A DNA stretch of 63,858 nt from a virus (IMGVR_UViG_3300045282_000203:1-63858); one strand, 5' to 3'; positions 7,783 through 48,400 are shown, numbered from the stretch's first letter. The notes: generated by a model from the letters alone, not told the origin. Numbers and translations: made by a program.

Positions 7783-8088
7783 TCAGCTCCTCTTCTCGGT
7801 GGTGGTTCGCACAGGCTTCAGCAGCACCGTCTCGCAGTAGTCGAGAGCTTCGGGGAGGAACTTCTTCACGTCCTCGATGGAGCAGCAGGGCCAGGTGTAG
7901 AAGTCTTCTTGATCTGCGGCACCAGCAATGATGAGTGCTTGACCGCCGCCAAAGCTGATGCTGAGCTCCTTACTGATGACGAACTCGGGATCGGTGCAAT
8001 CATAGCGGTTTGCAGGTGTGTAGATGATAGGTGGCCCAACGGCGACGAGCAGGGTGAGCTGCAGGCTCTGCTTGTTGATCCTCATCAC
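7783..8088 (-). CDS. Hypothetical protein
   Basis: GGAGG RBS, coupled to the upstream gene. Confidence 0.55.
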   Translation of the reverse strand: MMRINKQSLQLTLLVAVGPPIIYTPANRYDCTDPEFVISKELSISFGGGQALIIAGAADQEDFYTWPCCSIEDVKKFLPEALDYCETVLLKPVRTTTEKRS

Positions 8089-8309
8089 TGCACCTCCATC
8101 ATAGACTCGATGAGACGCTGACGGCGCTGGTACTCTTCCTGGAGTTCCTTGAAGGAGAAGGTGATGGAGAAGATTGACTTCTCACCGGCAATGAGAAGAA
8201 CTGCCTGTCCGCGCGTTTCTGCATGCTTCATCAGGCTGAAGAGGATGACCTCGGTGGTAGCCTGCAGCCGCTCTTCTCGGGTGGGGTAGACTTTCGTTGT
8301 TTCCTTCAT
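8085..8309 (-). CDS. Hypothetical protein, first ORF downstream of the hammerhead ribozyme
   Basis: ATG at 8309 preceded by AAGGAG; the ORF-track extension to 8402 overlaps the ribozyme. Confidence 0.65.
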   Translation of the reverse strand: MKETTKVYPTREERLQATTEVILFSLMKHAETRGQAVLLIAGEKSIFSITFSFKELQEEYQRRQRLIESMMEVQ

Positions 8310-8337
8310 GGTGATTCTCCTTGTGGTGGTGGAGTGG

Positions 8338-8420
8338 AACGCGCTTGGCTCATCAGCACCGCGGAGCGCGTTGTTGGGTGCGGTGTACCTCTCCTGCCTC
8401 ACGACGGTAGAGGTTTCGCC
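8338..8420 (-). ncRNA. Type II hammerhead ribozyme with loop I / 3'-tail pseudoknot
   Basis: Minus strand: GGC GAAA CCUCU-accgucgugaggcagg-AGAGG UA^ CACCGC-acccaacAACGCGCUcc-GCGGUG CUGAUGA GCC a AGCGCGUU. All core nucleotides and stems I-III are present; predicted cut between 8386 and 8385. Confidence 0.92.
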
Positions 8421-8426
8421 TGTTCG

Positions 8427-8745
8427 TGGTAGCTTCGCCTCACGGCGTGCCGGTGATGTCGACTGTTCACGGGTGTGGGATATCTCGTCCCACTGTCGAG
8501 GTTCTTAGTTCAGCGGCCCGCCACCAGGTGTCCGCTTGAGATCTGCGAGTGAAGCGCGTAGGAGGTCACCATCACTCCCCATCGTCATCATCTCACATCT
8601 GATCACTTGTCAAAGTCCTGGTCGCTACCTTCGCTTGGCTCGCACGTCCGCGGGATCTCACCGCGATGCCCTCAAGCGTTGTCAGTATCTCCAAGATCCT
8701 GGGTGCCCTCGAGCCCGCCCAATCAAGCAGCCCACCGGCTACCAT
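8427..8745 (-). ncRNA. Putative large structured non-coding RNA (~320 nt) of unknown class
   Basis: 5' end UGGUAGC/CGGUG pairs with CACCG/GCUACCA at the 3' end; many nested complementary segments; no credible ORF; promoter directly upstream. Confidence 0.7.
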
Positions 8746-8750
8746 GGTCC

Positions 8751-8780
8751 ATTATAATACTGTGCAAAGAAGAATAGCAA
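8751..8780 (-). promoter_or_regulatory. Sigma70-like promoter
   Basis: TTGCTA-N18-TATAAT on the - strand in an AT-rich patch; predicted +1 near 8743-8745, the first nucleotides of the closing stem. Confidence 0.75.
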
Positions 8781-8794
8781 CTTTTGTTGAATAC

Positions 8795-8820
8795 CTAAGT
8801 GTTGAGGTTGTAACACTTAG
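8795..8820. promoter_or_regulatory. Inverted repeat upstream of the promoter (operator candidate)
   Basis: CTAAGTGTT-gaggttgt-AACACTTAG. Confidence 0.45.
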
Positions 8821-8986
8821 CGTGATAGCCTACTCGCAACTGGCTCTAGAAGGCCTACTTACAGGGCCTTGTCATCCTTGCCACACCGTGTGCAGGTCAT
8901 CGTGAAGGTGGGCGCCTGGTATGGGCTGATGTGCAGGTGCACTACGTAGTCCCAGCGATGTCCGAGGAAGAAGCAGATGATCCTCT

Positions 8987-9493
8987 TCATAGGTCCGCCT
9001 GGGGAAGTCCTGGGAAGCCCTCGGTGATGTCCTGCACTGGGTGCGGGCCGGTGGGCGCATCATCTTGTGGGTGCTTCTCGATGATCTCGGGAGAGAGATC
9101 CTCAGCGCAAAGATCACTACCGTCTGACTGATCGGTGAGCAACTGCCACGCAACCTCAATATCGTGATCCTCGTAAACGAAGCATGCCATGAGGTGCTTT
9201 GCAGCCTCAGTCATCCGTCGCCGAAGCTCTGCCTCCGCATCACGCGAGGTGGTGAGTCGAGCCTTCAGGGAGCAGACACCGTTGTAGACTCCCACGGCGG
9301 TGATGCCAGCACTGTCTAGAGCAGCTCGGCACAGCTCTAGCTCTTGTGTAGCGCGCTGGTGGTTAGCGAGCTGAGTTCTCATCTCAGCGATGCGGGCGTG
9401 GCCTACGTCGTTGATGAAGCAGCGGAAGCGCTTCTCTGAGAAGCAGTAGCTCATCTCGATGCCGCAGTGTGGGCAGATGTTGTCGCTCATCAT
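8987..9493 (-). CDS. Hypothetical protein (N-terminal Zn ribbon, coiled coil)
   Basis: CPHC..C..H motif; AAGGAG RBS. Confidence 0.6.
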   Translation of the reverse strand: MMSDNICPHCGIEMSYCFSEKRFRCFINDVGHARIAEMRTQLANHQRATQELELCRAALDSAGITAVGVYNGVCSLKARLTTSRDAEAELRRRMTEAAKHLMACFVYEDHDIEVAWQLLTDQSDGSDLCAEDLSPEIIEKHPQDDAPTGPHPVQDITEGFPGLPQADL

Positions 9494-48037: not shown

Positions 48038-48400
48038 ATGGCCAATAAACCTGACCTCTCCTTGCTGCTCGTCGCACTCAACCGTGCCCGCATCCCCTTC
48101 CAGATCGTTTCCCTGGACGACGGAGATATCCACTTCCGCGTTCGCATCACCAACTCTGACGGTCTTATGCAGGAAGGGACCATCGGCGACGTCTACCTCG
48201 CTGGATCCTGGCTCTACACTGAAGCGGTGAAGGGCTGGCCAGATAAGGTGCTCGACTTCAGCCCTATCAGGTCTGAGCTAGTTCAATCAACTCCTGGTGA
48301 TGAGATGTGGCAGCAGGCCCCCGTGCTAGGAACACAGAATGACGGTTCTCCGGCTCTCACCACTACCCGCGTGGCACCTGATGCCGAGGTGCAACCGTGA
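48038..48400 (+). CDS. Hypothetical protein (possible fibre chaperone)
   Basis: Follows the fibre gene; GGAG RBS. Confidence 0.5.
   Translation: MANKPDLSLLLVALNRARIPFQIVSLDDGDIHFRVRITNSDGLMQEGTIGDVYLAGSWLYTEAVKGWPDKVLDFSPIRSELVQSTPGDEMWQQAPVLGTQNDGSPALTTTRVAPDAEVQP

Follow-up and report, generated by a model that had tools for sequence, protein, structure and literature searches.

Type II hammerhead ribozymes of bacteriophages were described in 2011 by Perreault and colleagues (PLoS Comput Biol, PMC3088659), whose type II consensus already includes a pseudoknot between loop I and the 3' tail. In the portions of that paper that deal with this contact, the pseudoknot is recorded in the majority of members and not in all of them, pseudoknot mutants are stated to lose fast cleavage and compensatory mutants to regain it, and changed lengths around the pseudoknot are stated to be capable of lowering the rate by orders of magnitude. 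The portions on genomic setting describe prophage contexts in which several hammerheads flank single genes, mention a halovirus whose mapped 5' end falls within three nucleotides of the hammerhead cleavage site, and propose that phages cut their long transcripts into mRNAs of gene length (Perreault 2011, PMC3088659). In Desulfovibrio vulgaris, according to the available sections of Olzog 2021 (PMC8782182), three type II hammerheads cleave in vivo, and both of the resulting ends, the 2',3'-cyclic phosphate (2',3'-cP) and the 5'-OH, were captured from total RNA. The part of the de la Pena 2017 review (PMC6155905) that concerns prokaryotes places their hammerheads beside small non-conserved ORFs and regards their role as still open.

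The site analysed here belongs to IMGVR_UViG_3300045282_000203, a virus record of 63,858 bp whose whole length is called the window in what follows and whose completeness is put at 100% by CheckV estimate. The window, an uncultured tailed phage, encodes a T4-type large terminase (TerL) and a portal, and the best named match of its terminase is Aggregatibacter phage S1249, with 42% identity. Among sequencing runs, one DNA run from a soil metagenome contains the stretch and may be its source, and no RNA run was listed. Terminase, portal and further long ORFs occupy a plus-strand arm at about 22-54 kb, and a minus-strand arm at 1-21 kb carries replication and nucleotide-metabolism genes, namely those for a DUF3854/DUF5906 protein, an exonuclease, a thymidylate synthase and an ATP-dependent DNA ligase; a tRNA search of the window returned none. 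The hammerhead sits in the minus-strand arm, within a 677-nt gap between the ORFs 9493-8987 and 8309-8085, a setting that agrees with the phage or prophage location, between or before small genes, given for the class in the relevant part of Perreault 2011. Apart from this setting by small genes, the window site shares with the class, as characterized in the same part, the core, the circular permutation and the pseudoknot just 3' of stem II. The likeness to the D. vulgaris hammerheads lies in the ribozyme type and in the bacteriophage-origin genes that the available sections of Olzog 2021 (PMC8782182) place near one of those loci; the D. vulgaris ribozymes come with direct in vivo evidence from a cultured host, whereas the window ribozyme is known from metagenomic phage sequence alone.

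Relatives of the locus itself were sought in several collections. The blastn comparison of 7900-9100 with GenBank phages gave no match, no close relatives emerged when IMG/VR was scanned by protein words of the ligase and of the ORFs on either side, and among metagenome contigs neither the downstream ORF (JGI contigs) nor an exact pattern built from stem III and the core of this ribozyme was found, all of these searches being of a kind that detects close relatives only and from which the window's own record was possibly excluded.

The sequence-only reading had placed a complete type II hammerhead on the minus strand at 8420-8338, and every element named in it was recovered at its position, with all core bases and three stems in the type II arrangement. 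Along the minus strand, to which all of the following coordinates refer, the elements succeed one another in the order stem II strand, GAA, stem III hairpin, H17, stem I hairpin, CUGAUGA and stem II strand; loops cap stems I and III, and stem II is open and holds the 5' and 3' ends. The 5'-proximal strand of stem II, GGC (8420-8418), pairs with the 3'-proximal strand GCC (8349-8347), where C8418 corresponds to C11.1 and G8349 to G10.1, and the G10.1-C11.1 pair is present. The former strand is followed by the core bases G12, A13 and A14 (8417-8415), which are aligned to the invariant GAA of the Rfam family Hammerhead_II (RF02276), and by the stem III hairpin (8414-8387), whose six pairs comprise A15.1-U16.1 (8414/8387) and five more, and whose 16-nt loop is able, in the predicted fold, to form a further GUGA-capped extension. 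H17 is the A at 8386, and the scissile phosphate is predicted between 8386 and 8385, a position which we take to follow from established hammerhead numbering; the same cut had been put forward from the sequence and agrees with the hammerhead layout. The stem I hairpin (8385-8357) consists of six pairs and a loop I of 17 nt, in which 8372-8365 provide one strand of the pseudoknot, and the core bases C3, U4, G5, A6, U7, G8 and A9 (CUGAUGA, 8356-8350) were assigned both by reading of the sequence and by the RF02276 alignment. Behind stem II stand a single A (8346) and the tail strand of the pseudoknot (8345-8338), which starts 1 nt after stem II and forms eight Watson-Crick pairs with 8372-8365.

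All invariant parts of the hammerhead core (C3-A9, GAA, A15.1-U16.1 and an H17 other than G) are present with zero core deviations, and the three helices, with 6 bp in stem I, 3 bp in stem II and 6 bp in stem III, are contiguous from the core. None of the core-adjacent mispairs (N10.1-N11.1, N1.1-N2.1 and 15.1-16.1) on which candidates were rejected, according to the corresponding part of Perreault 2011, occurs at the window site. The pseudoknot, for which at least 4 bp between loop I and the bases right after stem II are expected in type II, extends over 8 bp; the complementarity between loop I and the 3' tail is perfect, as had been claimed, and such a tertiary contact is typical of the class in the pertinent part of Perreault 2011 (PMC3088659). 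The predicted energy is -25.7 kcal/mol when the three stems are enforced, to which the pseudoknot duplex adds -11.7 kcal/mol, and the best nested fold amounts to -30.8 kcal/mol, with the pseudoknot helix replacing stem I.

The rarity of such an arrangement was assessed with a strict type II descriptor, composed of the exact core, the core-adjacent pairs, at least 4 pairs each in stem I and stem III (A15.1-U16.1 being excluded from the count for stem III) and at least 2 pairs in stem II. Over the two strands of the window (63,858 bp), this descriptor matched exactly one site, compared with 0 in 300 dinucleotide-preserving shuffles, and the heptamer CTGATGA alone occurs 27 times in the window. 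A relaxed descriptor, which allows N at core position 7 and shorter stems, led to the same single site in the window and to 19 hits over 200 first-order Markov simulations. With respect to the pseudoknot, a helix of 8 Watson-Crick pairs joining loop I to the tail's first 12 nucleotides was reached by 25 of 200,000 shuffled tails. No second ribozyme was detected in the window by Rfam or by the strict and relaxed descriptors.

Comparison with the Rfam hammerhead models, which the sequence-only reading had suggested, gave a divided result. Under permissive filters, RF02276 aligns from end to end with 8421-8343 (model positions 1-66) and all core columns match, but the score of 25.5 bits stays below the gathering cut-off of 37 bits, and at gathering thresholds the whole window yields 0 Rfam matches. 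The E-value of the site is 0.013 in a 1.1-kb scan and 0.73 in the whole-window scan, and at E <= 10 the model finds matches in 11 of 14 control genomes, none of them above the cut-off. The departures from the model are confined to loop insertions, a tail deletion and H17, namely a 9-nt insertion in loop III, a loop I of 17 instead of 10 nt, a 3-position deletion in the tail and A for C at the cleavage site. The cut-off is a database threshold and not a property of the ribozyme, and the score alone does not decide whether the site is real, while the independent tests are clear. At E <= 1, the whole-window scan listed the hammerhead and two sub-threshold matches to eukaryotic families, which were taken as chance. 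A match to the vertebrate lncRNA HOTTIP_1 (48051-48101, minus strand; E = 0.0088, 31.7 bits where the cut-off is 50) is almost certainly fortuitous in a phage.

Beyond the pseudoknot, a spacer of 15 nt (8337-8323) that is composed of C, A and T only and contains no G leads to the Shine-Dalgarno sequence AAGGAG (8322-8317), 7 nt before the ATG at 8309-8307, which is situated 37 nt from the end of stem II and opens the downstream ORF P0001 (8309-8085, 74 aa, no known family), the first gene of the predicted cleaved mRNA. A strong ribosome-binding site and a start codon shortly after the ribozyme, as had been asserted, are both in place, and the layout recurs in relatives. An ORF of 105 aa (8402-8085) also opens at an in-frame GTG (8402), and if this were the real gene, the hammerhead-like sequence would be its N-terminal extension; however, there is no Shine-Dalgarno-like sequence before 8402 whereas AAGGAG stands 7 nt before the ATG at 8309, the equivalent ribozymes of two related phages (G013 and G002) lie between ORFs, and the stems and the pseudoknot would be left unexplained, so that a coding origin of the motif appears hardly tenable.

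Ribozymes comparable to the window hammerhead were found in phages related to it through the portal. Portal relatives amounted to 390 confirmed sequences, the best 80 of 390 were kept, and the 38 virus records with the longest contigs were searched whole with RF02276. At E <= 1, matches were obtained in 10 of the 38 records, and since convincing matches (at least 35 bits) are restricted to 2 of the 38, the ribozyme is a sporadic element in this phage group and not a fixed feature. The first of the two records, G002 (57,216 bp, portal 71% identical), harbors three Hammerhead_II matches of 39.2, 38.9 and 36.2 bits within 1.3 kb, and the second, G013, harbors one of 35.2 bits; the remaining matches in the portal-related records do not exceed 14.1 bits. 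The five ribozymes (one from the window, three from G002 and one from G013) were parsed by script. Stem II is GGC/GCC in all five, the pseudoknots comprise 8, 6, 5, 5 and 5 pairs, have four different sequences and start 0-1 nt after stem II, and each ribozyme is followed by a G-poor spacer (8-13 nt in the four relatives), then AAGGAG, then an ATG 26-37 nt after stem II.

In G002, three consecutive genes are each preceded by a ribozyme of their own, and in G013 the stop codon of the upstream ORF overlaps the first base of the ribozyme. Copies B and C of G002 (L097 3415-3565 and 4320-4470, minus strand) agree at 52 of 56 positions over the stretch that begins with the CUGAUGA core and ends with codon five of the following gene, the genes being otherwise different, and the differences in stems I and III compensate one another. 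The similarity of the two copies suggests a duplication or a recombination at the ribozyme cassette. In related phages the architecture is retained with compensating changes, which is covariation unobtainable from a single site. The window site and its relatives have in common the GGC/GCC stem II, the pseudoknot 0-1 nt behind it, the G-poor spacer, AAGGAG, the ATG and small ORFan genes downstream. In contrast, the hammerheads of G002 and G013 have C at H17, 6-11 nt in loop I and 5-6 bp in the pseudoknot, while the window copy has A, 17 nt and 8 bp; G002 carries three in tandem and the window a single copy; and the downstream genes of the window bear no detectable relation to those of G002 and G013, the sites being not syntenic. 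None of the genes behind the window, G002 and G013 ribozymes reached a Pfam family, and two genes of G002 gave weak PHROG matches to families of unknown function; they are small ORFs of the kind described in the prokaryotic part of the de la Pena 2017 review (PMC6155905).

Two further features of these relatives were recorded. Around L097 5265-5425, G002 contains a tandem direct repeat of two overlapping 86-nt copies that are 88% identical and offset by 75 nt, which follows closely on a gene (819 aa) resembling DNA polymerase III alpha and stands upstream of the leader that precedes the first hammerhead. In G013 (L098 3430-3786, minus strand), two genes upstream of the hammerhead, an ORF reads by eye as a J-domain protein, with an HPD motif after 'YWALALKHHPDK' and a Cys-rich C-terminus.

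A wider sample was drawn from IMG/VR with a pattern (fixed GGCGAAAC, GTMC, CTGATGAGCCA) taken from these ribozymes, which led to at least 119 loci (L099-L217). Within these loci the descriptor gave 346 instances among the matches listed, 264 of them unique; because the pattern was derived from these very ribozymes, there is a bias in the frequencies for stem II and H17, and the numbers do not amount to a census. A Shine-Dalgarno-like motif with a start codon 10-34 nt after stem II accompanies 174 of the 264 unique hammerheads among the matches listed, compared with 565 of 5,280 random same-strand positions. As for the upstream side, the stop codon of the preceding ORF (at least 60 aa) is less than 50 nt away for 197 of 258 hammerheads among the matches listed, and an upstream gap above 300 nt is found for 6 of the 258. 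The mean length of the Watson-Crick pseudoknot among the matches listed is 3.76, against 2.93 for shuffled tails. At least two unique copies per locus occur in 54 of the 98 loci with a unique parsed hammerhead among the matches listed, with up to nine in one locus.

Measured against this sample, the window copy is atypical. H17 is A in 4 of 264 hammerheads among the matches listed, a frequency subject to the bias just mentioned, a loop I of at least 16 nt is present in 5 of 264 among the matches listed (17 nt in the window), and the longest Watson-Crick pseudoknot among them has 7 bp (4 of 264), none reaching the 8 bp of the window. Since changed lengths around the pseudoknot can lower the rate by orders of magnitude, as stated in the mechanistic part of Perreault 2011, the activity of this outlier geometry is not to be assumed. 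A rival view takes the motif as a product of chance or decay that does not cleave, in a region that is a plain 5' UTR, a view to which the sub-threshold Rfam score, the unusual loop I length, the A at H17 and the failure to find an orthologue that would show conservation lend themselves. It is opposed by the strict descriptor, matched in 0 of 300 shuffles, by the pseudoknot, reached in only 25 of 200,000 shuffled tails, by the core, free of deviations, and by the succession of ribozyme, spacer, AAGGAG and ATG that is repeated in relatives, and we regard it as very unlikely. The window ribozyme is very probably real.

Upstream of the ribozyme extends a long leader (8745-8421, minus strand) of about 325 nt, purine- and G-rich and ORF-poor, which separates it from a sigma-70-like promoter match (8780-8751, minus strand; TTGCTA, 18 nt, TATAAT; 10 of 12 positions) that is a consensus match only. 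Two promoter-like sites are present in the region, against 0.7 +/- 0.9 in shuffles. If the site at 8780-8751 is used, the 5' product would start near 8745 and measure about 360 nt. Upstream of it, 14 nt from the promoter-like -35 hexamer, ends an inverted repeat (8795-8820) of 9 perfectly matched bp around an 8-nt spacer, which, as no T-run follows, resembles a site for a regulator more than a terminator. On the minus strand at 8593-8745, an ATG 5 nt after the TATAAT hexamer opens a frame of 50 aa, and a leaderless small ORF is conceivable there, although the stretch is treated here as presumptively non-coding. An ATG at a similar place in the leader is seen by eye in G002, with a frame of 17 codons, and there is none in L111, one of the loci of the wider sample.

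The sequence-only reading had described the 5' product as a large ncRNA, and this designation could not be sustained. The leader 8745-8421 matched no Rfam family, its fold is not significantly more stable than those of shuffles (z = -1.67, equalled by 8 of 100), it contains no ORF that has a ribosome-binding site, and no homologue was detected: short-word blastn against all fetched loci gave chance matches only (best E = 0.36), and the G002 leader, compared at the nucleotide level and as peptides in three frames, gave no match with an E-value under 0.38. Leaders of about 400 nt likewise precede the first hammerhead of G002 and of L111, and in a MAFFT alignment of the three the leaders of G002 and L111 align to each other whereas that of the window does not do so convincingly. 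The leaders of G002 (L097 4812-5215, minus strand) and L111 (5287-5700, minus strand) share several conserved blocks, and an exact-pattern IMG/VR scan with such a block recovered only these two and one AT-rich chance match; these two sequences could represent a small unnamed leader-RNA family that ends in a ribozyme.

It might still be argued that the very purpose of the window ribozyme is to release a functional ncRNA of about 360 nt (8745-8386) with a cyclic-phosphate 3' end, the mRNA being a by-product. Such a purpose would fit the promoter-like site about 360 nt upstream of the predicted cut, a stretch devoid of any ORF having a ribosome-binding site, the stable hairpin in which the 5' product would end, the occurrence of leaders of about 400 nt in G002 and L111 as well, and the rarity of upstream gaps above 300 nt (6 of 258 among the matches listed). 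It is countered by the missing Rfam match, by a fold that 8 of 100 shuffles equal, by the dissimilarity of the leader, at the DNA and the peptide level, to all fetched loci including the G002 and L111 leaders, and by the fact that most phage hammerheads lack such a leader, 197 of 258 among the matches listed lying less than 50 nt behind an ORF. We conclude that the window sequence is a long leader and that its reading as an ncRNA, although unlikely, is the rival of most weight.

A different role for the leader is suggested by an exact 10-nt direct repeat, in which the stem II/tail strand 8351-8342 recurs at 8641-8632, 290 nt upstream. Were this copy of the 3' strand to refold with the strands of the ribozyme, cleavage would be delayed or gated, with processing dependent on transcription speed or on a factor, and regulated folding was raised as a possibility for the class in one part of Perreault 2011 (PMC3088659). 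The repeat may nevertheless be due to chance, a 10-nt repeat in 700 nt being not beyond expectation (about 0.2 by rough estimate), the predicted leader fold leaves the ribozyme uninvolved, and comparative support is lacking, which renders a conditional ribozyme of this type highly improbable.

Taken as a whole, the evidence favours, with a probability of roughly 0.82, a functional pseudoknot-stabilized type II hammerhead of the kind common in phages, which would uncouple the downstream message from what lies upstream of it and most likely shortens the transcript to a point close before its ribosome-binding site. During transcription of the minus strand, stems III and I would fold as hairpins, the 3-bp stem II would close the core, and the 8-bp helix between loop I and the tail would hold stems I and II fixed next to each other. 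The 2'-OH of A8386 would then attack the phosphate between 8386 and 8385, by a chemistry that is established for the class and presumed to operate here. The 5' product would carry its 2',3'-cyclic phosphate end directly after the stem III hairpin, and in read-through transcripts, instead of measuring about 360 nt, it would include the upstream cistrons. The 3' product would have its 5'-OH on C8385, a base that is by then part of stem I, and continue with the pseudoknot, the spacer, AAGGAG and the ATG at 8309. Because only the 3-bp stem II joins the two products, their release would be fast and the cut effectively irreversible, and the leader would most likely be discarded after cleavage.

For the downstream message, the expected gain is a defined, structured 5'-OH end together with a standard, open ribosome-binding context. 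RNases that depend on the 5' end disfavour paired 5'-OH ends. The translation and the decay of the downstream mRNA would accordingly be freed from the upstream context, and its stability and translation may be altered. In insulators of the RiboJ type, a hammerhead between the promoter or leader and the ribosome-binding site removes the variable 5' context; RiboJ itself was reportedly engineered by Lou et al. in 2012 from a satellite-RNA hammerhead of another topology. By analogy with that device, the arrangement in the window would work in a similar manner, with the difference that its ribozyme is natural and of type II.

A bolder proposal, which we offer as speculative and improbable as a whole though not far-fetched, is that the unit of type II hammerhead, G-poor spacer, strong Shine-Dalgarno sequence and ATG constitutes a natural insulator cassette that is portable and that phages set before accessory genes of rapid evolution. 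At the RNA level, each gene would obtain its own defined and protected 5'-OH end and a context-free ribosome-binding site; at the DNA level, the conserved 3' half, as in the G002 copies with 52 of 56 identical positions, would serve as a recombination joint for gene swapping; and in the window the cassette would also free the cyclic-phosphate leader of about 360 nt, with a role of its own.

The window ribozyme is a new example and not a new kind, such elements having been known in phages since 2011, and the finding alone would not surprise a specialist. It is set apart from the RF02276 class by its score (25.5 against 37 bits) and by an 8-bp pseudoknot longer than any of the 264 among the matches listed, and it represents a well-formed but atypical member, with a long loop I, this extended pseudoknot and an A at the cleavage site. 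The Rfam cut-off misses copies of this sort, and sub-threshold matches in phage intergenic regions therefore merit a check by descriptor and pseudoknot. Within the sample, the ribozyme keeps a highly regular position with respect to the start codon (174 of 264 among the matches listed, compared with 565 of 5,280 random positions), and no quantification of this spacing was found in the accessible portions of the class literature. It is this regular spacing that makes testable the idea that phage type II hammerheads may act as insulators of the ribosome-binding site or as protectors of the 5' end.
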